NCBI RefSeq assembly: GCF_003334815.1 | Contig: NZ_QOWO01000058.1 | Strand: one strand, 5' to 3' | DNA from: Escherichia coli | GTDB lineage: Bacteria > Pseudomonadota > Gammaproteobacteria > Enterobacterales > Enterobacteriaceae | Length of the DNA: 13,117 bases | In this document: in pieces, positions 1 through 13,117 of the stretch | How the letters are laid out: every line of letters begins with the position of its first letter | Position numbering within the stretch: position 1 is the first letter of the stretch | The notes under the pieces: generated by a model | Told to the model about the DNA's origin: nothing | The model's database searches: none | The model's input: the letters and a program-made list of their open reading frames with translations, nothing else | Made by a program: the position numbers and the translations under genes

Positions 1-39
1 TGCCTCTGCCGTCTGCATAAGACTATGATGCACAAAAAT

Positions 40-135
40 AACAGGCTATAATGGCCTGAAAAACGGGACAGGATGTGTAATTGTAATACCGTCACACGCG
101 ACGCTATTACAATTACCATCTGGTCAGGGCTTCGC
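40..135 (+). other. oriT: Candidate origin of transfer (oriT) upstream of nikA, with inverted repeats
   Basis: Perfect 12-bp inverted repeat GTAATTGTAATA (77-88) / TATTACAATTAC (105-116), extendable to about 17 bp with one indel (72-88 vs 105-120). Second short palindrome CAGGC-TATAATG-GCCTG (42-58) containing a TATAAT hexamer (47-52). Position immediately 5' of a nikA/nikB relaxosome operon matches the R64 oriT arrangement. Exact nic site not determinable by eye. Confidence 0.6.
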
Positions 136-160
136 CCCGACACCCCGTAAGGAGCCTGAA

Positions 161-493
161 GTGAGTGATAGTGCAGTAAGAAAGAAAAGTGAGGTACGGC
201 AAAAGACAGTTGTCAGAACACTCAGATTCTCTCCTGTTGAGGATGAAACCATCAGGAAAAAAGCTGAAGATTCCGGACTTACTGTATCTGCTTACATCCG
301 AAATGCAGCACTGAATAAGCGAATTAACTCCCGTACAGATGATGCTTTTCTGAAGGAGTTAATGAGACTGGGAAGGATGCAGAAGCATCTGTTTGTTCAG
401 GGAAAAAGAACCGGTGACAAGGAATACGCAGAAGTACTTGTTGCCATAACCGAACTTACAAATACATTGCGTAAACAGTTAATGGAAGGTTGA
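161..493 (+). CDS. nikA: Relaxosome accessory protein NikA (ribbon-helix-helix, oriT-binding), 110 aa
   Basis: GTG start at 161 preceded by SD TAAGGAG (148-154); stop TGA 491-493. 110-aa basic protein directly upstream of the relaxase gene; size and position match NikA of IncI1 R64. Confidence 0.88.
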   Translation: MSDSAVRKKSEVRQKTVVRTLRFSPVEDETIRKKAEDSGLTVSAYIRNAALNKRINSRTDDAFLKELMRLGRMQKHLFVQGKRTGDKEYAEVLVAITELTNTLRKQLMEG

Positions 494-503
494 GGATTCT
501 CCG

Positions 504-3203
504 GTGAATGCAGTCATTCCGAAAAAGAGAAGGGACGGCAAGTCTTCGTTCGAAGACCTGGTGTCCTACGTCTCTGTCCGGGATGACATGACCGATGAGG
601 AACTGAATTTATCTTCTTCTTCGCAGGCTGAACAACCGCACCGGAGCCGCTTCAGTCGTCTTGTTGATTATGCAACACGCCTTCGAAATGAATCATTCGT
701 GGCACTGGTTGATGTCATGAAGGACGGCTGCGAATGGGTTAACTTTTATGGTGTGACCTGTTTTCACAACTGTACATCTCTTGAAACTGCCGCTGCAGAT
801 ATGGAGTACATTGCACAGCAGGCACACTATGCGAAAGATAATACTGATCCTGTTTTTCACTACATTCTTTCCTGGCAGGCCCATGAAAGCCCGCGTCCGG
901 AACAGATTTATGACAGTGTACGCCATACCCTGAAATCTCTCGGGCTGGGTGAACATCAGTATGTCTCTGCCGTGCATACCGATACTGATAACCTGCATGT
1001 TCACGTTGCGGTCAACCGGGTGCATCCGGTTACAGGTTATCTCAATTGCCTTTCATGGAGTCAGGAAAAACTCAGCCGTGCCTGCCGTGAGCTTGAACTG
1101 AAGCATGGTTTTGCTCCGGATAACGGTTGCTGGGTCCATGCGCCGGGAAATCGTATCGTTCGCAAAACTGCCGTTGAACGTGATCGCCAGAACGCTTGGA
1201 CACGCGGAAAAAAACAAACTTTTCGCGAGTATGTTGCGCAGACAGCGGTAGCTGGTTTACGCAGTGAACCTGTACATGACTGGTTATCCCTGCATCGTCG
1301 TCTTGCTGAAGATGGTCTGTACCTGTCTCAGATGGACGGAAAATTTCTGGTGATGGATGGCTGGGATCGCAACAGGGAAGGTGTACAGCTTGACTCGTTT
1401 GGCCCTTCCTGGTGTGCAGAAAAACTCATGAAAAAAATGGGTGACTACACGCCAGTACCAAAAGACATTTTCAGCCAGGTGGAAGCACCAGGACGCTATA
1501 ATCCGGACTTCATTGCAGCTGATGTTCGCCCGGAAAAAATCGCTGAAACAGAAAGTCTGCAGCAGTATGCCTGTCGTCATCTTGGAGAACGTCTGCCGGA
1601 AATGGCACGGGAAGGACGGCTGGAAAACTGCCAGGCTATTCACCGCACACTGGCTGAAGCGGGATTATGGATGCGTGTTCAGCATGGTCACCTGGTTATC
1701 TGTGACGGTTATGATCATAACCAGACTCCCGTTCGTGCTGACAGCGTATGGTCACTGCTGACGCTCGACAATGTGAATCAACTCGATGGTGGCTGGCAGC
1801 CTGTACCAACAGATATTTTCCGCCAGGTTACGCCAACAGAACGCTTCCGTGGTCGTCGTATGGAGAGCTGTCCTGCGACCGATAAAGAATGGCACCGTAT
1901 GCGTACAGGTACGGGGCCGCAGGGGGCTATCAAACGCGAACTGTTTTCTGACAAAGAAAGTCTGTGGGGATACAGCATCAGCCATTGTAGCCCTCAGATT
2001 GAAGAAATGATCACACAGGGTGAGTTTACCTGGCAGCGTTGTCATGAGCTGTTTGCACAACAGGGACTGATGCTACAGAAACAACATCACGGGCTTGTTG
2101 TCGTTGATGCCTTTAATCATGAGCAAACGCCGGTGAAAGCCAGCAGCATTCATCCTGATCTGACACTGGGGCGTGCGGAGCCACAGGCCGGACCTTTTGT
2201 GAGTGCCCCAGCAGATTTGTTTGACAGGGTGCAACCTGAAAATCGCTATAACCCGGAGCTGGCTGTCAGTGACAGGTACGGGGTCAGCAGTAAACGTGAT
2301 CCAATGCTGCGCCGGCAGCGACGTGAAGCCAGGGCTGAGGCCCGTGCTGACCTGCGTGCCCGCTATCTGGCATGGCGTGAACAATGGCGTAAACCAGATC
2401 TGCGTTATGGGGAACGTTGTCGGGAAATTCATCAGGCATGCCGTCTGCGGAAGTCACACATTCGTGCGCAGTACGATGATCCGGCATTACGTAAGCTGCA
2501 TTATCACATTGCAGAAGTTCAGCGAATGCAGGCATTGATCAGGCTGAAAGAAGACATCAGGGATGAGCGACAGAAACTTATTGCTGACGGGAAGTGGTAT
2601 CCACCCTCTTACCGTCAGTGGGTCGAAATTCAGGCTGCTCAGGGAGACAGGGCTGCTGTATCGCAGCTGAGAGGCTGGGATTATCGCGATCGCCGTAAAG
2701 ACAAGTCACGCACAACGACGACAGACCGCTGTGTCGTGCTTTGTGAACCGGGCGGAACGCCGGTATACGGTAATACCGGTGATCTCGAGGCCCGTCTGCA
2801 GAAGAACGGGAGTGTTCGTTTCCGTGACCGTCGGACGGGAGAGTTGGTCTGTACGGATTATGGTGACAGGGTTGTTTTCCGTAATCACCATGACCGCAAT
2901 GCGCTGGCAGATAAACTAGATTTGATTGCACCTGTATTGTTTGAGCGTGATCCCAGAATGGGCTTTGAACCAGAAGGAAACGATGGACAGTTTAATCAGG
3001 TCTTTGCTGAAATGGTGGCATGGTACAATGTGACGGGATTCTCTGAACATGGAAATTACGTTATTACTCGACCGGACGTAGATCAGCACAGGGAAGTGAG
3101 TGAGCGGGGCTATCGCAATTACATGGATAGTAACACTTACAGAGATGGAGCTCAGCCAGTTCAGGATAGTGAGAATCGCTGGGAACCTCCAACACCGGTG
3201 TAA
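504..3203 (+). CDS. nikB: Conjugative relaxase NikB (MOB-P family), 899 aa
   Basis: GTG start at 504 with GAGGA (492-496) upstream; stop TAA 3201-3203. Contains the MOB-P histidine-triad motif HTDTDNLHVHVAVNRVHP (compare RP4 TraI HxDxxxxHxH) and an N-terminal Tyr-containing region (DLVSYVSV). The 899-aa length agrees with R64 NikB. Confidence 0.93.
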   Translation: MNAVIPKKRRDGKSSFEDLVSYVSVRDDMTDEELNLSSSSQAEQPHRSRFSRLVDYATRLRNESFVALVDVMKDGCEWVNFYGVTCFHNCTSLETAAADMEYIAQQAHYAKDNTDPVFHYILSWQAHESPRPEQIYDSVRHTLKSLGLGEHQYVSAVHTDTDNLHVHVAVNRVHPVTGYLNCLSWSQEKLSRACRELELKHGFAPDNGCWVHAPGNRIVRKTAVERDRQNAWTRGKKQTFREYVAQTAVAGLRSEPVHDWLSLHRRLAEDGLYLSQMDGKFLVMDGWDRNREGVQLDSFGPSWCAEKLMKKMGDYTPVPKDIFSQVEAPGRYNPDFIAADVRPEKIAETESLQQYACRHLGERLPEMAREGRLENCQAIHRTLAEAGLWMRVQHGHLVICDGYDHNQTPVRADSVWSLLTLDNVNQLDGGWQPVPTDIFRQVTPTERFRGRRMESCPATDKEWHRMRTGTGPQGAIKRELFSDKESLWGYSISHCSPQIEEMITQGEFTWQRCHELFAQQGLMLQKQHHGLVVVDAFNHEQTPVKASSIHPDLTLGRAEPQAGPFVSAPADLFDRVQPENRYNPELAVSDRYGVSSKRDPMLRRQRREARAEARADLRARYLAWREQWRKPDLRYGERCREIHQACRLRKSHIRAQYDDPALRKLHYHIAEVQRMQALIRLKEDIRDERQKLIADGKWYPPSYRQWVEIQAAQGDRAAVSQLRGWDYRDRRKDKSRTTTTDRCVVLCEPGGTPVYGNTGDLEARLQKNGSVRFRDRRTGELVCTDYGDRVVFRNHHDRNALADKLDLIAPVLFERDPRMGFEPEGNDGQFNQVFAEMVAWYNVTGFSEHGNYVITRPDVDQHREVSERGYRNYMDSNTYRDGAQPVQDSENRWEPPTPV

Positions 3204-3228
3204 AGAATGTTATAAACGGGAGATTATT

Positions 3229-3801
3229 ATGGCTTATGTCGATGATTTTAAAGAAGCAATAATCAGGACTCGGCGGTTACAACTTGCGCAACCCGTTGAT
3301 TTATGTGAGATGCATACTCGCATAATGAACGATAAACGAATCCGCCATTTGGGAGGAATTATACGTCCTGTACTGGATCTGAATTCTGGGTATGAACAAC
3401 TGGTTGCGCGATGTATGCCTGTTCATCTTCAAGCCAGACCTTTGGTTGAAGAATGGCTGGGATGTCCTGTTTATTTTACGTTGGGATGGATTGATGATGG
3501 GACCCCAAAAGGTATGTTCAGGTTTGATGAGGACTTTATTACTGATACATTGAAAAATGGTTATACAGGAGATACTGTCAATCTTCATGCATGGCTAACT
3601 TTACCTAGTATGGAAATTATAGATATCACATTATCAACAACAATTTCTATGTTGCAGGGGCATAAGAATCAGTTAGGCGGTGTTATTATCAAGAGAGCTG
3701 ATGATATTAAAGGCTTCTCATATAAGCCAATGCTTATTGGTGATGAATTCCTGTTAAAATCTGGTATATTGCATAAGTTTACATATCTAGAATTGAACTA
3801 G
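3229..3801 (+). CDS. Hypothetical protein, 190 aa, hydrophilic, no recognised domain
   Basis: ATG at 3229 with GGGAG (3218-3222) 6-7 nt upstream; the longer ORF-track start at 3100 overlaps the nikB 3' end and has no RBS. Stop TAG 3799-3801. AT-rich codon usage like the adjacent microcin island. Convergent with mcpB. Confidence 0.6.
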   Translation: MAYVDDFKEAIIRTRRLQLAQPVDLCEMHTRIMNDKRIRHLGGIIRPVLDLNSGYEQLVARCMPVHLQARPLVEEWLGCPVYFTLGWIDDGTPKGMFRFDEDFITDTLKNGYTGDTVNLHAWLTLPSMEIIDITLSTTISMLQGHKNQLGGVIIKRADDIKGFSYKPMLIGDEFLLKSGILHKFTYLELN

Positions 3802-3850
3802 TGTTTTTTAAATAAACTGGTTTTTTGACGTTCTTATCTCTGTTCAGAAA

Positions 3851-6040
3851 TCACCTCCTGTTGGGATGATTATTTATATTATGAGTTCTGACAGGTCGAT
3901 ATTTTATTTCCGAAAAGTGACCATCTCTCAGATACAGAACTCTGTCTGCGGATGCTATTGTTTCTGGTCGATGAGCTATTAACAGAACAGGAATTCCGAG
4001 TTGGCGTAATGTCTGGCTTATTTCTATTTCACTTTCCACATCAAGATGACTGGTTGCTTCGTCCAGTAATAATAGACTAGGTTTTTTATACAGTGCTCTT
4101 GCCAGTAGAATACGTTGCTTCTGACCACCGGAAAGTCCCCCCCCGGTTTCTCCAAGCAATGTTTGATAGCCCATTGGCATTGCCATAATATCACTGTCTA
4201 TAAGTGCCAGACTTGCGCATTTACGCATGTGTTCATGATCTCTAATTTCGCTAAAAAACATTATATTATCAGCTATAGAACCTTTGAAAAGATAGTCATC
4301 TTGCAATACAGTGCCAATTCGTTGACGAACCTGAAAATAATCAGAATGTGTATGTGGTATGCCAAATGCATTAATTCTTCCTTCACTGGGTGTATGAATC
4401 CCAAGAATAAGCTTTACCAATGTTGATTTGCCACATCCTGATTTACCTGTTATTGCTAATATTTCTCCAGGAAAGAGCATTAGTGACGCGTTATCCAATA
4501 TGGGTTTATCTGCGCCCTTATGGCTAAATGTTATTTTTTCGATAAGTAATGGTGGATGGGTATTATCATATTTATGTTCTCTGTACTGGCTTGCAGATAT
4601 TGTTTCATTATGGTTTGCCCAATGGTGCTGATTCTGGTGACCTTCCTGTGGTGTTAGCACAATATCGGCAAGTCTCTCGTTATAAACATCAAGCATGCGC
4701 CAGGAAAAAAAGTTATCAGTCAGATTGCTTATACTGGATGAAAAACGCATCTGATAGGATAAGTAAGCAACCAACATACCCACGGTAAATGTCCCATCCA
4801 GCACTTCTACTGCACCCTGCCACAAAATAATGGCTGAAACTACACTTTCCGTCAGTGTATGCGTCAGCTCATAGCTCATTTGTAAACGATTCTGGCGTAG
4901 CTGTGTGTTTCTGCGGGTAACGTTGAGGTTCAGCCAGGCCGCTTCTCTGTGAATAGTTACACCGTTGATTCTCAGACTCTGAATGCCGTTAAGGGTTTCG
5001 AGAAAATGCCCCGACTCCTTAGTTCCTGCATCCCAGACATCTTCAACAGATTGCCGTAAAGCCGGATACCACAATGCTCTCAGTGCGCCATATATAATAG
5101 CTGCAATTACTGCGATTAATGTCATTCCTGGACTATACAACAGCATCATGCAAAGAGCAGTCACAATAAGTAGCATATCCAGAATGCCTTCAAGAACCTG
5201 CGTTGTCAGCGCCTGCTGGATTATATCTACTGCTTCAAAACGGGCATTAATACTTCCTTTACTTCGGGCATCGAACCATGCAAGAGGGAGTCTTACAAGA
5301 TGATGGAAAACTCTGGCAGTCCATTGCATGTTAAAATTGACTGATAAACTGATCGTTGCCCATTGTCGTGCCAGGGAGAGTAATAATTGTATGAGTGATA
5401 ACAACAGTAGTGCCACTATAATGACATACAACAGACTTCTGTCTGCTGCAACCAGAACTTCATCAATTACCAGTTGATTAAGAAGTGGACCACCTAAAGC
5501 CAGAATCTCAAGGGCCAGAGCAAAAATAATAATTTTTGTCATTGATGCTAAAAGCCCCGGGGTTTTCCCTGTCAGTTGGCGCAGGTGGATTTTTTTTCTC
5601 TCGTTCCGGGGGGTGAAATCACTGGCTGGAGTTAATTCCAGTGCCACTCCTGTAAAATGCTTACCTGCGTCCAACAGACTTATTGTAATTTTTCCTCTGT
5701 CCGGATCATGGATGTATAACCGGTTTCCCCGAACTTTATGGAGAACGACGAAATGGTTCATATCCCAGTGCAGAATAGATGGAAGATTAAGACACCTCAG
5801 ATCTTCGGGTTCCAGACGAACTGCACGTGATGATAAATGGATGGACGCTGCACATTCGATCAACCTTTGTAGCGTCATTCCCTGAATACCTATATTGAAA
5901 CGTTCCCGTAATGTCGATAAATCTGTTTTCAGTCCATGCCAGCAGGCAATCATAGCCAGACACGCCAGACCGCATTCAGCTGATTCGGTTTGACGGATAA
6001 CGGGTAGTTGTTTCCTTACTTTCCAGTTTATTGATTCCAT
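3851..6040 (-). CDS. mcpB: Microcin ABC exporter with N-terminal C39 double-glycine peptidase domain (CvaB-like)
   Basis: C39 peptidase motifs (QTESAECGLACLAM catalytic Cys, HFVVLH His), a transmembrane domain, Walker A GKSGCGKST, ABC signature LSGGQKQR, Walker B LLLLDEATS, H-loop IAHR. Start chosen at the ATG 6040-6038, which overlaps the upstream gene stop as TAATG and has a GGA-containing SD (AAAGGAAA). The ORF-track start at 6088 adds 16 aa and lacks an SD. N-terminus aligns with CvaB (PVIxQTExAECGLACLAM). Confidence 0.92.
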   Translation of the reverse strand: MESINWKVRKQLPVIRQTESAECGLACLAMIACWHGLKTDLSTLRERFNIGIQGMTLQRLIECAASIHLSSRAVRLEPEDLRCLNLPSILHWDMNHFVVLHKVRGNRLYIHDPDRGKITISLLDAGKHFTGVALELTPASDFTPRNERKKIHLRQLTGKTPGLLASMTKIIIFALALEILALGGPLLNQLVIDEVLVAADRSLLYVIIVALLLLSLIQLLLSLARQWATISLSVNFNMQWTARVFHHLVRLPLAWFDARSKGSINARFEAVDIIQQALTTQVLEGILDMLLIVTALCMMLLYSPGMTLIAVIAAIIYGALRALWYPALRQSVEDVWDAGTKESGHFLETLNGIQSLRINGVTIHREAAWLNLNVTRRNTQLRQNRLQMSYELTHTLTESVVSAIILWQGAVEVLDGTFTVGMLVAYLSYQMRFSSSISNLTDNFFSWRMLDVYNERLADIVLTPQEGHQNQHHWANHNETISASQYREHKYDNTHPPLLIEKITFSHKGADKPILDNASLMLFPGEILAITGKSGCGKSTLVKLILGIHTPSEGRINAFGIPHTHSDYFQVRQRIGTVLQDDYLFKGSIADNIMFFSEIRDHEHMRKCASLALIDSDIMAMPMGYQTLLGETGGGLSGGQKQRILLARALYKKPSLLLLDEATSHLDVESEIEISQTLRQLGIPVLLIAHRPETIASADRVLYLRDGHFSEIKYRPVRTHNINNHPNRR

Positions 6041-7293
6041 TACAGATTTCCTTTCATGCTCCATAGTGGCTCTGTCAGCCATTCCCATAAATGACGAGTA
6101 TCAAGGTTGACGTCTCCTTCCAGAGTCATGCCTGGTCTTAGCGGTTCTTTTTTTCCGTATGCAAATATAAATGTATTTTCAGGCTCAACAATAACGCGAT
6201 AATGCCCTTCGTTTTCTTTCCATGTGACGGGTGAAACTGGTAATAAGTCGGAAGGAGCCAGAGTCGTATGACTGATTTCACGAATTGTGCCGTACTGGAT
6301 ACCAAATTTCTGATAAGGGAAGGCCGAAAACTTCAGAGATACTCGTTGACCTGGTCGGATAAAACCGGCTTTCTGGCTGGTAGCATAAAGCTCAATTTGT
6401 AAATGAGCATTATCGGGAATGAGAGTCATGACCGGTTCTGATGCTTTCACAGACTGCCCCTGTTTGATCAGTACAGCAGCAATAGTCCCGGATACTGGAG
6501 CCCTCAGTGTAAATTTTTCTTGTCCGGCCAGTTCATCCTGTTGTTGTTTTAGCACCTGCAATTGTCTGTCGAGTTCTGCTTTACGGCTTTTCCCCTGAAC
6601 AATAAGATGATTTAGTTCATCTTTGGCTGTGTCCATTGCAGTATGCAACTGGAGAAGCCCCTGACGCTGATCTTCAACGTTTTGTTGAGCGGCAGAAACA
6701 TCAATTTGTTTCTGTTGGAATTCGATATCTGACACATAATGCGTACCAGCCAATTTTTTATAGCGTTCCATGACGGATATAGCCAGTTCTGCCTGACGTT
6801 CAGCAAGCTGAAGTCTTTGTTCTGCACTTCTTATTTGTGGCTCAAGTGATACCATCCTTTGCCGTATGGCTTCCTGTTGTTGACTATTATCTCGCGACTC
6901 AAAGGATTGCTGGGAGGCCAGCATGATAGACTGGGTTTTCAGGGAAATACTCATCGTTGCTAATGTGCCAGTTCCGTTACCGTTATAATGTTCTCCACTT
7001 ATATGATAGAGTTGTGTCCCTGCAGTTACGTGTTCTCCTTCGGATACAGTCAGTTGTGTTACATATCCTGCATATTGAGGAATTATTTTTACCAGTCCTG
7101 ATGAGGGCATGACGATACCTGTAAGATGCGCTTTCCTTGTATAGCTACCGTAATAGATGAATACAGTCAGACTTAACATAATGAATAATGTAACTGTTGC
7201 ACATACGGATAGGCTAAATGATGTTGGTAAAATAATGTCACCATATTCAGTGTCATTATGATGTTCTATTGCTTCACTTCTGAATATATTCAT
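6040..7293 (-). CDS. mcpD: HlyD/CvaA-family membrane fusion protein for microcin export
   Basis: N-terminus MNIFRSEAIEHH aligns with CvaA MFRQDALENRK, followed by a single TM helix and a long coiled-coil Q/E-rich periplasmic region. Start taken as ATG 7293-7291; the ORF-track start at 7329 is a TTG with no SD. Stop TAA 6042-6040 overlaps the mcpB start. Confidence 0.88.
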   Translation of the reverse strand: MNIFRSEAIEHHNDTEYGDIILPTSFSLSVCATVTLFIMLSLTVFIYYGSYTRKAHLTGIVMPSSGLVKIIPQYAGYVTQLTVSEGEHVTAGTQLYHISGEHYNGNGTGTLATMSISLKTQSIMLASQQSFESRDNSQQQEAIRQRMVSLEPQIRSAEQRLQLAERQAELAISVMERYKKLAGTHYVSDIEFQQKQIDVSAAQQNVEDQRQGLLQLHTAMDTAKDELNHLIVQGKSRKAELDRQLQVLKQQQDELAGQEKFTLRAPVSGTIAAVLIKQGQSVKASEPVMTLIPDNAHLQIELYATSQKAGFIRPGQRVSLKFSAFPYQKFGIQYGTIREISHTTLAPSDLLPVSPVTWKENEGHYRVIVEPENTFIFAYGKKEPLRPGMTLEGDVNLDTRHLWEWLTEPLWSMKGNL

Positions 7294-7395
7294 TCTTTTT
7301 AATACAATAACTAACCTTTCTGTCAACAAGAGGGGTTGGTTGAATAATATTGATATTTGATATACATCTTACCTGTGTGATGTTAAAGTTTTATA

Positions 7396-8031
7396 CTATA
7401 ATATATTTAACAATATAACAAAGCCGTTTATCCCCGCATGTAACAGCATTGGATAGAAAATCCCCTTACTGCAAATTCTTATATTCAACAATAACATTGA
7501 CATAATAAACAGAATAATTTGATCAGCTACATTATAATACTGCGGATGCATCAGGCAGAAAAATAAAGATGTACACACGCAGGGGGTGAATAATTCTTTT
7601 TTATAAGTCGCACATAGAAGGCCGAATAAACATGTTCGGTAAACAATTTCTTCATAATACGGAACTATCAGGACCAGTATAAATATTTCAATCCAATTAA
7701 GTGAAGTTGATTCACTATTGTTTAAATTGTCTCTATAAGCAAAAATAAGCAGTTGCATGAGAGCAATTACAGCAAATGATATTACTAATAGCTTTAATGT
7801 TTTCGCATTTGTCTTTATGGTGATTTTACAACCTGGTATTCTTCTTAAGTAAAAAATATAAAATGAAGTTGATATTAAAATTTCAGTAATAAAGACAAAG
7901 GAAAATGCCAGGTCCAAACCAATATATTGTATGGTGAATGCTGGTGTGAATATCACAACTGTTGATATAACAACAAGTAGAAGAAACGCTATCGCATTAT
8001 CTTTGCTGTATTTATATATGTTATCATTCAT
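7396..8031 (-). CDS. mcpA: CPBP-family (CAAX protease / Abi-like) intramembrane metalloprotease homologue, 211 aa
   Basis: Polytopic membrane protein with the three CPBP motifs: EExxxR (EEIVYR), FxxxH (FFCLMH) and HxxxN (HAGIN). Very AT-rich. ATG at 8031-8029 lies 4 nt after the mcpI stop (TAG 8038-8036). Confidence 0.85.
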   Translation of the reverse strand: MNDNIYKYSKDNAIAFLLLVVISTVVIFTPAFTIQYIGLDLAFSFVFITEILISTSFYIFYLRRIPGCKITIKTNAKTLKLLVISFAVIALMQLLIFAYRDNLNNSESTSLNWIEIFILVLIVPYYEEIVYRTCLFGLLCATYKKELFTPCVCTSLFFCLMHPQYYNVADQIILFIMSMLLLNIRICSKGIFYPMLLHAGINGFVILLNIL

Positions 8032-8035
8032 AATG

Positions 8036-8236
8036 CTATTTCGCGGAGATTGTTCTTATTTTTTCTATGATATAGTCCATGAATCTTGCTGTGGAAAAAA
8101 GAGTGATCAGCATGACTACAATCTTTGAAAACTCGGAAGGGAGTGAAAACCAGTATAAATCAATAACAGAGGAGCCACTCAATAGCGCAAATCCCAGTAA
8201 CAAACCACATATAAAGGAAAGTAATTTAATAAACAT
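8036..8236 (-). CDS. mcpI: Small two-helix membrane protein, probable microcin immunity protein (66 aa)
   Basis: Small hydrophobic ORF immediately downstream of the precursor gene, the usual position of class II microcin immunity genes. Start chosen at ATG 8236-8234 (MFIKLL...) because GGAGG lies 8-9 nt upstream; the ORF-track start at 8251 would add 5 aa (MEGAT). Confidence 0.7.
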   Translation of the reverse strand: MFIKLLSFICGLLLGFALLSGSSVIDLYWFSLPSEFSKIVVMLITLFSTARFMDYIIEKIRTISAK

Positions 8237-8260
8237 AGTAGCGCCCTCCATTATATCTAT

Positions 8261-8623
8261 TTATCGGTTACATGTTCCGCCAACATTATTACCTGAACAA
8301 CTACTGGAACTTCCTCTGTTACCACATCCATTTCCACTACCATGATCTGAGAGACATTGACCAACAACGGCTCCACCAATGGTACCTCTTGCCATTCCTA
8401 TGGGACCTCCTTTGATCGCACCACCAATCATTCCACTAAATACAGCGTTAGCGCATTTTACAGTGCTTGGATCACTATAAATATGAGTTGGTGCGTTTCG
8501 ACCCAGTGAGTTACGAGCCCCACTGGAACGCTCATTACGGGGGCCACCTTCAAAGTTGCTGTTTGCGTTTCCTCCGCTGACAAGCGTTATCTCATCTAAA
8601 GTTAATTCTCTTATACCTGCCAT
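8261..8623 (-). CDS. mcpM: Class II microcin precursor with double-glycine leader (120 aa), matches microcin PDI McpM from memory
   Basis: N-terminal leader MAGIRELTLDEITLVSGG has the ExLxxxExxxVSGG double-glycine pattern ending at G17-G18, with a second GA site at G35/A36. Gly-rich mature region with GxxxG-like repeats (GGAIKGGPIGMARGTIGGAVVG) and Cys at 57, 90, 100, 109, 118. SD GGGGAAA upstream of ATG 8623-8621. First gene of an operon ending in a C39-ABC exporter. Confidence 0.88.
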   Translation of the reverse strand: MAGIRELTLDEITLVSGGNANSNFEGGPRNERSSGARNSLGRNAPTHIYSDPSTVKCANAVFSGMIGGAIKGGPIGMARGTIGGAVVGQCLSDHGSGNGCGNRGSSSSCSGNNVGGTCNR

Positions 8624-8780
8624 ATCATATTTCCCCTATTGGTTGTTTGTTATTTTGTGCGTTCAAGATAGCCAATAACAAAAATGTAATGAAAGTGAAA
8701 TTGTGTGATTAAATGTAAATATGTGAAAATATTTGTATGTTCTTGAGGTTGTGTGATTACAAAAATATCATCGTGTGAAG
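8624..8780 (-). promoter_or_regulatory. AT-rich promoter/operator region of the microcin operon
   Basis: About 160 bp AT-rich leader between the trbC terminator and the mcpM start. Read on the - strand it contains five TTYAC-type half-sites phased at about 10 bp (TTTCAC, TTTACA, aaTCAC, TTTCAC, aTTACA; + coordinates about 8685-8728). On the + strand TTGTGTGATTA occurs twice (8701-8711, 8749-8759). Exact -35/-10 not assigned. Confidence 0.5.
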
Positions 8781-8808
8781 ATATAAAACCGTGCCAGGGC
8801 TGGCACGG
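8781..8808 (-). terminator. Rho-independent terminator downstream of trbC
   Basis: Perfect 9-bp stem CCGTGCCAG (8789-8797) / CTGGCACGG (8800-8808) with a 2-nt loop; on the - strand it is followed by TTTTATAT (8788-8781). Lies 8 nt after the trbC stop codon (8816-8818). Confidence 0.7.
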
Positions 8809-8815
8809 CCTCTGT

Positions 8816-11107
8816 TCAGTACATTCCGTCCCAGTCCGGACGGTTGGTTTTTTTATGATGAAACCCGTTTACAGGACGCCCTGTCAGGTGGTTATTGTCC
8901 TGTGGAAGCGTTAACAGGTTTATACCTGCTCTTTCTGCTCTCACTGATATCTGATTTTCCTCTTTTGTTTCAGGTAGTTCTGGTCTGTTCAGCGTGATAT
9001 AGCGAATTCGTCGCTCTTCCCGTGTGGTCGTTTTAAGCGTATTCACCGCTGTTTCCCACAAGGCACTTTCACGTGCGTTGATATCCGTGTCGTACTCTTC
9101 CAGCATTGCCATAGCCGCCTGACGTCCTGCAATGCGTTGCTGGAATGTATCCACGATCGTGTGCGGCTCTGTGCGAATTTTTCGTCTTTTTCTGGAGGGT
9201 TTTGCAGTCAGGACGCCAATGATGGCACTGACATTTTCCGGTGACGGTATTCGACGTTGAGTAGTACGGGGAACAAGACGGCGGAGACGGTCCAGGCGTG
9301 GCGCATCCACGCTGATATACCTGTTTATAACAACGGGATCGCTGCTGCAGCTTTTCTCATTGTCAGGGATGAAGAATGATGCTGATGGTACGGTTTCTCC
9401 CCGGAAAATAGAAAAGAACTCGCCAGGATGAAGTTCAATCAACTCCTGAACATCTATCTTACTTTCCATCAGGATGCTGATTTGTGGGCTGTCAATCCAT
9501 GATTCACCAAATATGCCGTCCTGACGCTGCAGGTTGTTCATCCTCGCCCTGGCTTCTTCACCGGCGGCGCTTTTCAGCGTTCTGGCCGTACTGCCCTCGC
9601 TGACAATCCTGCCGGCAAATTTTGTCCCCGTGTTCTGCATCAGTGTTGCAGTATTCGTGGCTGTTGTCTGTCCTTCTATACGTTCCTGGTCCTGTGCCAT
9701 CAAAATCAGAGCAAAATCCAGTGAACGCACCTGAGTGGCTTCCACAGCAATACGGTCTGTATAGTATGCCCCCACTTCATCAAGGAAACACAGATAAGGG
9801 AAACGCCCCTTATATTTTTTGACTTCCAGTGCATCGGAATCAGTTCCTTCGAGGCGGTAGCCCAAATCACGGGCGAGAATCATACTTTTCTGGGTGATAA
9901 ACATTCGTCCCAGAGCAGACGTTGTATGCGCTGATGTATCCAGAGCGGGGATCATTACCATCAGAATCCTGTCGCTGTGAATGCTGTCACGGATATCGAT
10001 ATCACCGGAATCTTCAGCAAAAATATCCCCGAATGCTTCCGTGAATGTGCTGAAAGTTTCAGAAAACTGCCCGGAGAGATAAGCATGTTGTTTTCTGGGT
10101 TCTTCCGTCCAGGCTGATGGTGTCCTGACCAGCGACAGGTCGAAACCGGGAACGTCCTGAAGGTAGTTACGTAACGGTGCGATAGCTTCTTCCGGCCACT
10201 GATCATCGAGGCCACGACAGTAAAGTTTGGCCATCCCTTCGAGAGTCATATGTTCACGGAGCATCTGCAGCGACATTGTTTTGCCTTCGCGCACACACCA
10301 GAATTTAGTACCAAATACCAGTGCCTTGTTCATGGCAATGGCCCGGGACTGCCACTCGCCCCCCTGGACGTTCTGGGGCAACATTGACTGCATTGTCTCC
10401 GCTGTGAATGCCTCAGTGCTGTAACAGAAGGGATTCCAGGTATTTGACTGAGGTCGTGTTTTTTCACCACTCAGAATGATTTCACTGCGGGATTTTCCTC
10501 CGTTCATGAAGTTGATGACTTCCACATCGTCTTCACGGCCAAAGCGTCTGGCCAGATACCAGATCGTTCTTGCCGTATCATTCTGTGCCTTGCCATCGAC
10601 AAGGGTGAATCCTCTTGCCCAGCAAAGCGGGTTAATCGCCCAGGCAAAGATGGTTTCCGTTTTACCACCACCGGTGGTGGCGAAAAACATTATATGGCGG
10701 GTCAGATCGTCCATACTCAGCCACAACTCCCGACCTATATCCCTGACGCGTTGATAACCAACATAAAATATGCCGCTGGCCGGTGACTCCAGGATGACCT
10801 CATACTGAAACAGAGTTGGCCAGAAGCTGAAAAGGCTTCTTTTAATCATTCTGTCCTGTGACGGGTCAGCACATTCCAGCGTCATGGGCATACGAAGAGG
10901 GCAGCGCCATCGCTGCAGACTAAATACCAGCATCGTTATCAGTGTGAACAACAGACATGCCGGTAATGCAAGTGGCCAGATAAAACTGGCCACAAGACTT
11001 GCCACCAGGCAAAAGCCATAGATATTGAGACTCTGGAGTGCATTCCAGACAGGATTTCCCCAGGCTGTACGGTGTAAAAGCTCGGGGTTAACGCGATGTT
11101 CACTCAT
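8816..11107 (-). CDS. trbC: Type IVB coupling-protein-like ATPase TrbC (DotL/IcmO homologue), 763 aa
   Basis: N-terminal TM helices followed by an ATPase domain with P-loop FFATTGGGKTE. ATG 11107-11105 overlaps the trbB 3' end by 8 nt. Position after trbB and size agree with R64 TrbC. Confidence 0.88.
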   Translation of the reverse strand: MSEHRVNPELLHRTAWGNPVWNALQSLNIYGFCLVASLVASFIWPLALPACLLFTLITMLVFSLQRWRCPLRMPMTLECADPSQDRMIKRSLFSFWPTLFQYEVILESPASGIFYVGYQRVRDIGRELWLSMDDLTRHIMFFATTGGGKTETIFAWAINPLCWARGFTLVDGKAQNDTARTIWYLARRFGREDDVEVINFMNGGKSRSEIILSGEKTRPQSNTWNPFCYSTEAFTAETMQSMLPQNVQGGEWQSRAIAMNKALVFGTKFWCVREGKTMSLQMLREHMTLEGMAKLYCRGLDDQWPEEAIAPLRNYLQDVPGFDLSLVRTPSAWTEEPRKQHAYLSGQFSETFSTFTEAFGDIFAEDSGDIDIRDSIHSDRILMVMIPALDTSAHTTSALGRMFITQKSMILARDLGYRLEGTDSDALEVKKYKGRFPYLCFLDEVGAYYTDRIAVEATQVRSLDFALILMAQDQERIEGQTTATNTATLMQNTGTKFAGRIVSEGSTARTLKSAAGEEARARMNNLQRQDGIFGESWIDSPQISILMESKIDVQELIELHPGEFFSIFRGETVPSASFFIPDNEKSCSSDPVVINRYISVDAPRLDRLRRLVPRTTQRRIPSPENVSAIIGVLTAKPSRKRRKIRTEPHTIVDTFQQRIAGRQAAMAMLEEYDTDINARESALWETAVNTLKTTTREERRIRYITLNRPELPETKEENQISVRAERAGINLLTLPQDNNHLTGRPVNGFHHKKTNRPDWDGMY

Positions 11108-12170
11108 GGCCAGACTCGCTGTCGGTGGTTTTCAGGAATAAATTAAGCGTGCCAGTTTCCTGCAGAATTCCAGTAGGCAGATGCCAGCCCGTGTCGGACA
11201 GCACCCATGGGGTACCGGCAAATCCGAACTTACGGAAGGCGACATTGTTAACATCAATCGCAGCTCTGGCTGCTTTCAGGCATGTTTCATCTGCAGGCGT
11301 TGTTTCTTCTGATGGCGTCATCATTCCGTTATCTGCGGAATACAGTCGGTGCCAGCCGGCAGCACGTTTCTGAGCATCTTTTTCACACAGCAGTGGTGCC
11401 ACACGGTCGGTGGATTCCTCTCCACCAATAACTGAAACCGGGTAGATAACGACATTGAAGTCGCTGGCCAGGCGTTTTAAGGCCGGCTCCAGAAGTCTGC
11501 AGTTAGGACAGGCAGGATCGAGAAATGCGAACAGGGTTCGTTCATGACCGGATGACAGGTTGATGGTAAACATGCCCCGATCGGCGTTCCGCTTCAGAAC
11601 AGTAGCCAGATTATGTCGCGCAGCTGCGGCTTCCGGATTTTTGCTTGTGATTGTTTTCTCCGGTACCTGGACGTCTTTTTTCGGGGGAACCGGGAGTTGA
11701 ATGCCTTCATTTAATGGCACAGTGTGATTCAGGTGAGGGGGAAGCAGTCGTGGCTCACCTGCTGTCTGTACTGCTTCAGGCGTTGTATCATCCCAGAATA
11801 CACGATCAACATAGCGGAACAGAGAGAAGCCAATCGTTGCCATTACGAACAGCACAACGCTGGCGATTATGCCACGGAACAAAGGTGTTCTGCTGAAGCG
11901 GCGTTCCATCAGATATTCAAGGCGCAGGCAGGAATCAATAGCTGTAAGTATCTGGTCAGCGTTATGCTCCTGTTTATCAATCAGGAGGGTTTCTTTGTTA
12001 CGGGTGCCCATGGCGTCAAAGGCTATATGAATCAGTTGATTATTTCGTGTTACCAGCCCTGACAGGGCATCCCGTGGAAGGACGGCAATAATTTCTGTCC
12101 TGCCATCCGGCCAGATTGCCTGCACGGAAATATGTTTTGCAATACGTGTTGCAAAGTACTCGATTGTCAT
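11100..12170 (-). CDS. trbB: Thioredoxin-fold protein TrbB (CxxC = CPNC) with N-terminal domain and single TM helix, 356 aa
   Basis: ATG 12170-12168 with SD GGAGAA 8 nt upstream; central hydrophobic helix (LFRGIIASVVLFVMATIGFSLF); C-terminal domain with CPNC active-site motif typical of DsbC/thioredoxin-like conjugation proteins. Confidence 0.82.
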   Translation of the reverse strand: MTIEYFATRIAKHISVQAIWPDGRTEIIAVLPRDALSGLVTRNNQLIHIAFDAMGTRNKETLLIDKQEHNADQILTAIDSCLRLEYLMERRFSRTPLFRGIIASVVLFVMATIGFSLFRYVDRVFWDDTTPEAVQTAGEPRLLPPHLNHTVPLNEGIQLPVPPKKDVQVPEKTITSKNPEAAAARHNLATVLKRNADRGMFTINLSSGHERTLFAFLDPACPNCRLLEPALKRLASDFNVVIYPVSVIGGEESTDRVAPLLCEKDAQKRAAGWHRLYSADNGMMTPSEETTPADETCLKAARAAIDVNNVAFRKFGFAGTPWVLSDTGWHLPTGILQETGTLNLFLKTTDSESGHE

Positions 12171-12188
12171 TTTCAGTTCTCCGGATAA

Positions 12189-12875
12189 TCAGAATTCGTT
12201 GTCTGTAGCAGGTGTGCGGGGCAGGATGTCGTCGGTGAGGGACCAGTTGGTCAGGATGCGGCGTTTCCGGTCGCGATCTGGTTGTGGTTCATCCCAGATA
12301 AGACCGAGACTGAGCATATCCCGCCGTAAGCCTTCCACCGCTTCATCAACACAGGGTTCAGGGCAGGGAAGGCCAAAACGCATGGCTTCGGCCTCTGCAC
12401 GTGCAACGGCCACCACGCCAGCGCCTTCAATAAATCCTTTCGTGGTATTGGCGCGGTGTAATGCATAAAACAGCGTCCTGTCCACGCCTTTCAGCCAAAT
12501 CCAGTTGGGGGGCGTAAGCCGCAGGTCATGTGCATACAGCCAGACCAGCCCACTGCGGACGTAGCGATGTTGTTTCAGCCATTGCTGTGCTCCGTTGCTT
12601 TTAATCACTCTCTGGAAAGCTGATTTGGCCAGTGAATAAACAGGGGTACAGAATTTCCCACTGTCCCGTTTGCTTTTAATTCTGCATGAGAGGTTCAGTG
12701 TATCCATGAGCTTTAATGCTGCCTTACGATCATCCAGGAAATACTGAAGACCAAATATGGCAAAGAGCGCTTTTTCATGTGGTGCCATGTCTTTCCAGGA
12801 CGTTAAAGGTTTACCTAACTGGGCCATGAAACATCGTCTTGCAGCTGCAACATCGAGCTGCATATTGGTGATGAG
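12189..12875 (-). pseudogene. trbA: 3' portion of trbA (DotM/IcmP-like T4BSS component), probably truncated by IS insertion
   Basis: The 259-codon ORF 12189-12968 reads through the IS left terminus; its first 31 codons (12876-12968) are IS sequence. The remaining 228 codons encode a hydrophilic domain with no TM helices, consistent with the C-terminal cytoplasmic part of a DotM-like protein. Gene order trbA-trbB-trbC matches R64. Confidence 0.55.
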
Positions 12876-13117
12876 TGAACCGCCCCGGGAATCCTGGAGA
12901 CTAAACTTCCTGAGAAAGAGGTAAACAGGATGACTAAAAATACTCGTTTTTCCCCCGAAGTCCGTCAACGGGCAGTCCGTATGGTTCTGGAAAGTCAGAG
13001 CGAATATGACTCACAATGGGCGACAATTTGTTCCATTGCTCCAAAGATTGGCTGTACGCCGGAGACTCTGCGTGTCTGGGTTCGCCAGCATGAGCGGGAT
13101 ACCGGGGGCGGTGATGG
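12876..13117 (+). mobile_element. IS3-family insertion sequence (IS629/IS1203-like), left end; continues beyond window
   Basis: Terminus begins 5'-TGAACCGCCCCGGGAATCCTGGAG (12876-) with the TG start typical of IS3-family inverted repeats, followed 54 bp later by the orfA start. OrfA N-terminus MTKNTRFSPEVRQRAVRMVLESQ...TLRVWVRQHERDTGGGDG matches the IS629/IS1203 OrfA helix-turn-helix protein from memory. Confidence 0.85.
12930..13117 (+). CDS. IS3-family transposase OrfA (partial, 5' end only)
   Basis: ATG at 12930 preceded by AGAGG (12917-12921); open to the end of the window (62 codons). HTH-type N-terminal domain; the Gly-rich GGGDG stretch precedes the expected frameshift region. Confidence 0.85.
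   Translation, partial: MTKNTRFSPEVRQRAVRMVLESQSEYDSQWATICSIAPKIGCTPETLRVWVRQHERDTGGGD

Follow-up and report, generated by a model that had tools for sequence, protein, structure and literature searches.

The open reading frame at positions 8261-8623 (minus strand) of the 13,117-nucleotide stretch of Escherichia coli DNA analysed here (the window) is almost certainly an allele of mcpM, the gene for the class IIa microcin PDI (MccPDI) precursor, and it belongs to a full mcpM-mcpI-mcpA-mcpD-mcpB cluster carried by a conjugative plasmid of IncI1 type. An earlier note on this DNA, made from the letters alone, had described a precursor peptide with two candidate processing sites and a glycine- and cysteine-rich C-terminus. 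That finding is real, accurately described and rightly interpreted, yet it has been known in detail since 2017, because Zhao et al. (PMC5311971) had already reported the interpretation and most of the tests that the note proposed. Its value as a discovery is accordingly small, as the two cleavage sites, the need for cysteine, the Dsb experiments and the placement in class IIa all appeared in print in that year, and reviews have since restated them.

Results

The mcpM locus and its plasmid setting

The features that define the locus, with the evidence for each, are as follows.

8261-8623, minus strand: mcpM, very probable microcin PDI precursor of 120 aa, stop codon at 8261-8263 (open reading frame and translation; 100% DNA identity to IncI plasmids)
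8036-8251, minus strand: mcpI, immunity gene, a 71-aa open reading frame directly after mcpM as in the published cluster
7396-8031, minus strand: mcpA, CPBP/Rce1-like intramembrane protease homologue (Pfam PF02517, E = 1.4e-13; CPBP family protease in RefSeq)
6040-7293, minus strand: mcpD, HlyD-family periplasmic adaptor of a type I exporter (TIGR01843, E = 1.4e-38; RefSeq coordinates, the longest frame running to 7329)
3851-6040, minus strand: mcpB, ABC exporter with an N-terminal C39 peptidase domain (Pfam Peptidase_C39 at 1.4e-33, ABC_membrane and ABC_tran; longest frame to 6088)
3204-8801, no strand assigned: low-GC island of about 5.6 kb in the IncI1 backbone, bounded by the nikB and trbC stop codons (empty-site comparison and GC)
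8624-8786, minus strand: AT-rich mcpM promoter region, with a promoter-like site at 8727-8700 (sequence)

The mcpM frame opens with an ATG behind a GGGG/A-rich ribosome-binding stretch, and its translation is MAGIRELTLDEITLVSGGNANSNFEGGPRNERSSGARNSLGRNAPTHIYSDPSTVKCANAVFSGMIGGAIKGGPIGMARGTIGGAVVGQCLSDHGSGNGCGNRGSSSSCSGNNVGGTCNR. All of the residues that the earlier note had listed are found in this protein: the pairs G17-G18 and G35-A36, spaced exactly 18 residues apart, the cysteines at 57, 90, 100, 109 and 118, a C-terminus that reads ...NNVGGTCNR, and a glycine content of 25/120 overall and 19/84 (22.6%) within residues 37-120. An additional GG pair, G26-G27, is situated between the two sites. 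The assignment to McpM was made by matching length, named residues and their positions to the published E. coli-25 protein rather than by direct alignment; 18 residues named in PMC5311971 (R5, E11, V15, S16, G17, G18, N19, G26, G27, S33, G35, A36, R37, G41, C57, C90, C109 and C118) occur at identical positions in the window protein. The E. coli-25 system (Eberhart et al. 2012; Zhao et al. 2017, PMC5311971) is alike also in its 120-aa precursor, its five-gene cluster, its location on a plasmid and its AT-rich upstream region.

The distribution of the sequence is in keeping with this identification. The mcpM DNA is 95-100% identical to that of 60 PLSDB plasmids from E. coli, Salmonella and E. 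fergusonii (52 Escherichia and 8 Salmonella; 57 of them conjugative), and the gene was found in 44 of 5,426 complete E. coli genomes, where it was plasmid-borne in every case. The exact window protein occurs on at least 1000 contigs, under the UniRef name 'Microcin protein', and 49 protein homologues, reaching down to about 40% identity, extend the family into Klebsiella, Enterobacter, Cronobacter and Pantoea. The frame is thus a genuine gene by its plasmid-wide DNA identity, its occurrence in complete genomes and its distant protein homologues. Pfam gave McpM only a non-significant Bacteriocin_IIc match (E = 1.3) and had no match for a 190-aa frame in the island, a PDB profile search with McpM gave zero matches at E <= 1, neither NCBIfam nor PADLOC matched McpM, McpI or the 190-aa frame, and Rfam placed no RNA family anywhere in the window. 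The NCBIfam CPBP models do match mcpA, though under their cut-offs.

The neighbours of mcpM all lie on the minus strand and match the published five-gene order mcpM-mcpI-mcpA-mcpD-mcpB. The mcpI frame holds two in-frame ATGs (8234-8251, minus strand), of which the second, at 8236, has GGAGGG 7 nt upstream; the true start is likely this second ATG, which would shorten the protein from 71 aa to 66 aa. Among the distant homologues, those of Pantoea and Cronobacter keep the neighbourhood of precursor, CPBP, HlyD and C39-ABC genes. On the Cronobacter malonaticus chromosome (loci L004/L005, 5682-7378), two paralogous McpM-like precursors of 122 and 125 aa stand on either side of one CPBP gene, and this group lies upstream of one HlyD/C39-ABC pair; in the Pantoea locus (L003) no open reading frame is called between the precursor and the CPBP gene.

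The island has a GC content of 30-46%, versus about 50% outside, and contains mcpMIADB and the 190-aa frame without a family match. The empty-site plasmid CP133143.1 aligns solely to window positions 1-3034 and 8802-12875, and at its empty site there is just a 36-bp hairpin. The 190-aa frame (3229-3801, plus strand) adjoins mcpB in convergent orientation and stands outside the published five-gene cluster; it accompanies the cluster in 4/4 plasmids compared, at 98.6-99% DNA identity. The final ~170 bases of nikB (3035-3203, plus strand) were not aligned by megablast to the nikB of CP133143.1, the alignment ending at 3034, and the C-terminus of the relaxase therefore differs beside the island junction. 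The last ~240 bases of the window (12876-13117) match the terminal part of an insertion sequence of the IS3 family that thousands of plasmids carry and that here interrupts trbA; this gene is intact (12189-13397) in the otherwise identical ECOR 3 plasmid RCS85_pI.

Just past the trbC stop (8781-8810, minus strand) there is a GC-rich hairpin followed by TTTTATAT, which looks like the terminator of the trb operon, and the AT-rich mcpM promoter follows. EnvZ/OmpR is needed for mcpM transcription, and OmpR-P binds from -61 to -134 relative to the start codon (PMC5311971, with OmpR-P gel shifts and a truncation series). By arithmetic this interval maps to window positions 8684-8757 and its core (-81 to -102) to 8704-8725; the repeated element AATCACACAA is found at 8757-8748 and 8711-8702, within the published OmpR-binding interval.

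Cysteine requirement and the C100 allele

The earlier note held that the five cysteines probably stabilise the peptide through disulfides, and it proposed to look for a dependence on dsbA/dsbB. The importance of cysteine is upheld for C57 and C90, which are invariant among 41 homologues and whose replacement (C57A, C90A) eliminates killing, as 5 mM DTT eliminates inhibition (PMC5311971). It does not extend to C109 and C118, which are conserved in at least 90% of the homologues and whose replacement (C109A, C118A) does not eliminate killing (PMC5311971). Since C109 and C118 are dispensable, the description 'disulfide-stabilised' holds at most for C57/C90, and the disulfide is putative. The expected Dsb dependence fails on the producer side, where knock-outs of dsbA, dsbB and dsbD, whether single, double or triple, had no effect (PMC5311971). 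Target-cell dsbA/dsbB mutants have been described as less susceptible, in reports that conflict with one another (PMC7680869; the conflict was noted by a 2025 study). Reviews list two putative intramolecular bonds for MccPDI (PMC7680869); neither direct proof of a McpM disulfide nor disulfide mass spectrometry was found in the literature searched.

It is possible, and we would put it forward tentatively, that the cysteines serve a role other than the intramolecular stabilisation of a monomer, such that C57 and C90 form disulfides between chains, or build multimers, once in the periplasm of the target, or act in some manner that involves no disulfide at all, while the tail cysteines (100, 109 and 118) are neutral. 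The lack of a phenotype for C109A and C118A and the ineffectiveness of the producer knock-outs are what such a role would lead one to expect, as is the free variation among G, S and C at position 100; moreover, the authors' own three-dimensional model keeps C57 and C90 apart, and they propose multimers formed via the Dsb enzymes of the target. An AlphaFold2 model computed here on the 41-sequence alignment has C57 and C90 at opposite ends of one long helix, although with a mean pLDDT of 51 and a pTM of 0.28 it is unreliable for the proximity of these two residues. The conservation of C109 and C118 across genera, on the other hand, argues for some function in the tail, and both the two intramolecular bonds listed in reviews and the intramolecular disulfides of the class IIa microcins V and L speak for a more conventional arrangement. 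The reading that we prefer retains a requirement for C57 and C90 with a putative disulfide.

8324-8326, minus strand: codon 100 (TGT, Cys), allele-specific fifth cysteine; GGT (G) or AGT (S) in sister alleles

The count of five cysteines made in the earlier note is right for the window allele but not for the published E. coli-25 allele, which has cysteine at 57, 90, 109 and 118 only (PMC5311971), and C100 occupies a non-conserved position: column 100 of the 41-member alignment contains G (18), N (9), R (6), C (3) and S (2). The exact 60-nt stretch with C100 is nonetheless present in 31/60 of the mcpM-bearing PLSDB plasmids. A discussion of this variant was not found in the literature searched; all published experiments concern the four-cysteine allele, and the activity of the C100 allele is assumed. 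The residue at position 100 of the E. coli-25 protein is ambiguous by mass, as S100 minus two disulfides would give 9,952.7 Da and G100/N107 unreduced would give 9,953.7 Da, the listed value being 9,953 Da (PMC7680869).

Sister alleles vary at positions 3 (G/S/N), 31 (E/D), 100 (C/G/S) and 107 (S/N), and position 73 also differs in the comparison of the window with loci L006, L008 and L009. The McpI protein is identical across four mcpM alleles (that of the window and three others), and in mcpM the share of nucleotide differences that change an amino acid is 3/4, 4/6 and 4/5 relative to the three others. In the comparison with NC_019097.1, 3/4 of the differences are amino-acid-changing in mcpM versus 9/48 in mcpA, mcpD and mcpB together (Fisher p = 0.034, on small numbers), and differences between alleles in the transport genes are mostly synonymous. 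Taken together, the changing substitutions in mcpM, the invariant McpI and the largely silent differences in the transport genes hint weakly that the toxin is under diversifying selection. We think it improbable, if worth stating, that this pattern goes together with a functional distinction, in which a five-cysteine allele as common as the four-cysteine one carries an unpaired C100 thiol that could alter covalent multimerisation, potency or stability, and the variation would fit diversifying selection over drift.

Leaders and maturation

8570-8623, minus strand: leader 1, residues 1-18 (MAGIRELTLDEITLVSGG), a canonical double-glycine leader with hydrophobic residues at -4/-7/-12/-15 and E at -8
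8516-8569, minus strand: residues 19-36 (NANSNFEGGPRNERSSGA), the published 'second leader', with G35-A36 at its end (G35P/A36D mutants, PMC5311971)

The suggestion that the precursor matures in two steps, at G17/G18 and then at G35/A36, is borne out by published mutants. G17P, G18P and G17A/G18A remove both cleaved bands and killing, G35P and A36D remove the smaller band alone and weaken killing, and G26P and G27P, in the intervening pair, are without effect (PMC5311971). Both cuts are McpB/McpD-dependent, being lost in mcpB and mcpD deletions, and the supernatant contains both processed forms of McpM and no precursor (PMC5311971). When residues 1-18 are deleted or exchanged for the ColV leader there is little protein and no activity, and when residues 19-36 are deleted export persists and most of the activity is gone (PMC5311971). 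For the window allele, residues 19-120 come to a calculated average mass of 9,987 Da and residues 37-120 to 8,141 Da.

The family alignment separates these segments as well. G17 and G18 are invariant among the 41 homologues, whereas G35 is kept in 32/41 and A36 in 34/41. The block means of column identity are 0.79 (residues 1-18), 0.45 (19-36), 0.89 (37-56) and 0.73 (57-90), such that 19-36 is the least conserved block of the 41-member alignment and 37-56 the most conserved. Residues 19-36 look unlike a double-glycine leader or a C39 substrate: at -4, -7, -12 and -15 leader 1 reads V, I, L and I but this segment S, N, E and S, and an in-register match of the one to the other finds just 3/18 positions in common. 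Family conservation supports the view that residues 19-36 form a pro-segment that is non-canonical and poorly conserved.

These properties bear upon which enzyme makes the second cut. One could suppose that the bond after A36 is cleaved after export by some other protease, and not by the C39 domain of McpB, with residues 19-36 acting as a pro-segment or spacer and no true second leader. The non-hydrophobic residues at the leader positions, the poor match to leader 1 and the low conservation of the block are all points in its favour, as is the replacement of G35 by R, N, H, K or E in 9/41 homologues; the authors leave 'during or after export' undecided, and the loss of the cut in mcpB and mcpD deletions would also be expected if cleavage merely needs prior export. 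Set against this, both G35P and A36D block the cut, as with a peptidase specific for Gly-Gly/Gly-Ala, and whole-cell lysates show both cleaved forms. The obvious alternative protease, McpA, is not required: according to the figure legends, the published blots used a background deleted for both mcpM and mcpA, in which the cut persists, and the second cut is therefore independent of McpA. On balance we consider cleavage by another protease unlikely, and retain two McpB/McpD-dependent cuts as the preferred account of maturation.

The glycine-rich core

8264-8515, minus strand: core peptide, residues 37-120, comprising the block R37..T54 (RNSLGRNAPTHIYSDPST), C57, the Gly ladder G64-G88, C90 and a Gly/Ser/Asn-rich tail with C100, C109 and C118 (conservation)

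The most conserved block of the family begins just behind the second cleavage site, a position that speaks for residues 37-120 being the functional core. The earlier note also described a mature region extremely rich in glycine with GxxxG-type repeats, and this withstood a shuffle test: residues 37-120 contain 9 GxxxG motifs, whereas shuffles that keep the composition have 3.9 +/- 1.6 (a fraction of 0.0024 reach the observed number or more). Seven of the glycines (G64, 68, 72, 76, 80, 84 and 88) form an unbroken i+4 ladder that was matched by only 106/200,000 shuffles, and the ladder glycines are retained in 28-40 of the 41 homologues. Hydropathy is moderate, the maximum 19-residue Kyte-Doolittle mean being 1.11, and the segment has the form of a glycine zipper, for which a moderately hydrophobic stretch needs three or more small residues spaced at i+4, as the seven glycines of 64-88 provide. 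The link that the note drew from GxxxG to membrane insertion is plausible, and the conserved ladder would be compatible with a role in the membrane or in oligomerisation. Taken as a whole, the pattern of conservation in the family fits the published mutant phenotypes.

Membrane damage by MccPDI has been reported (Lu et al. 2019, as relayed in PMC7680869 and PMC6795089, in accounts that do not tie it to the Gly ladder), and a glycine-zipper link for MccPDI was not found in the literature searched. A comparable ladder occurs in CdzC/CdzD of Caulobacter (PMC5380434), which are likewise small, leave by type I export and have a killing action restricted to contact or close range; they differ in that no sequence homology is shown, and MccPDI occurs in supernatants and uses OmpF.

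Class assignment and relatives

Reviews place MccPDI in class IIa (PMC10233263, PMC7680869), and the window agrees with the preference of the earlier note for this class over IIb. A class IIa microcin has a double-glycine leader of 15-19 aa, as residues 1-18 are with GG at -2/-1, and it has a dedicated C39-peptidase ABC exporter with a membrane-fusion protein, both of which are encoded in the cluster. It has no modification genes, and in the island there are only mcpMIADB and the 190-aa frame; UPLC-MS/MS of McpM found no modification (PMC5311971). Its mature peptide is under 10 kDa, as are both calculated products. Class IIb peptides carry a C-terminal motif (PMC10233263) that is absent here, and their clusters are chromosomal, with glycosyltransferase, esterase and acyltransferase genes; none of these is in the window, and the locus is always plasmid-borne. 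A siderophore (class IIb) microcin or a post-translationally modified peptide might be suggested by the Gly/Ser-rich tail (GSSSSCSG) and the protease-like mcpA, but can be rejected given a C-terminus of ...GGTCNR in place of a Gly/Ser motif with terminal Ser, an island devoid of the three modification genes, a plasmid-borne locus and the unmodified peptide seen by UPLC-MS/MS.

Microcin S (MccS, from pSYM1 of E. coli G3/10) has a precursor that is likewise of 120 aa and shares about 80% identity with MccPDI, with the same apparent double signal and cysteines at 57, 90, 109 and 118 (PMC10233263, PMC7680869). At 96-99% identity, the window protein goes with the MccPDI-type cluster and is not of the MccS type; its identity to the MccS-like protein P0007 is 78%. 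Immunity in MccS is attributed to a 216-aa protein of the CAAX-protease family (PMC6795089), whereas in MccPDI it is assigned to the small McpI, and McpA, the homologue of that 216-aa protein, is there called a 'synthesis' gene. The class IIa microcins MccV, MccL and MccN share the double-glycine leader, C39-ABC/HlyD/TolC export, plasmid location and lack of modification, with cysteines in V and L; unlike MccPDI they have a single leader, Cir/TonB uptake (V, L) in place of OmpF, dissimilar cores and no CPBP gene.

Discussion

The phenotype of MccPDI, as described in the literature for the four-cysteine allele, is OmpF-dependent and proximity-dependent killing of E. coli (PMC7680869, PMC6795089), and reviews add ATP synthase subunits and DsbA/DsbB to OmpF among the needs of the target cell (PMC10233263, PMC7680869, PMC6795089). 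If what has been reported for that allele applies to the one in the window, OmpR-P would turn on mcpM transcription at low osmolarity, and the 120-aa precursor would leave through the type I system of McpB (C39 peptidase-ABC), McpD (HlyD) and TolC. It would be cut after G18 and then after A36 into forms of 102 and 84 aa, both of which would be found in the supernatant. The toxin would require OmpF on the target cell and C57 and C90 in order to kill, and the producer would be protected by McpI. Beyond the published work, uptake may be mediated by the conserved block 37-56, by the C-terminal tail or by both, and the conserved glycine-ladder segment 58-90 may insert or oligomerise in the inner membrane and so bring about the reported membrane damage. 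C57 and C90 may form one or more disulfides, possibly intermolecular, that are made in the target periplasm. The five-cysteine variant, which accounts for about half of natural mcpM genes, seemingly lies outside all experiments so far.

The genes themselves are easily overlooked. In the RefSeq/PGAP records examined, mcpM and mcpI (window 8036-8623, minus strand; also 6009-6275 of locus L006) are without CDS annotation, and NC_019097.1 annotates an antisense 88-aa frame (window 8079-8345, plus strand) in place of mcpM. The notion that this antisense frame is the true gene and mcpM a spurious one, to which that record and the omission of mcpM by PGAP in most records might lend some colour, deserves practically no credence in view of the published mcpM knock-out with complementation, the western blots of mcpM products and the conservation of McpM across genera with its functional residues invariant. 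As standard annotation misses both the microcin gene and its immunity gene in the records examined, the carriage of microcin PDI on IncI1 plasmids is under-reported. IncI1 plasmids, which are frequent bearers of resistance genes, are in circulation in livestock and humans alike, and part of the practical value of this work lies in the missed annotation of mcpM and mcpI.
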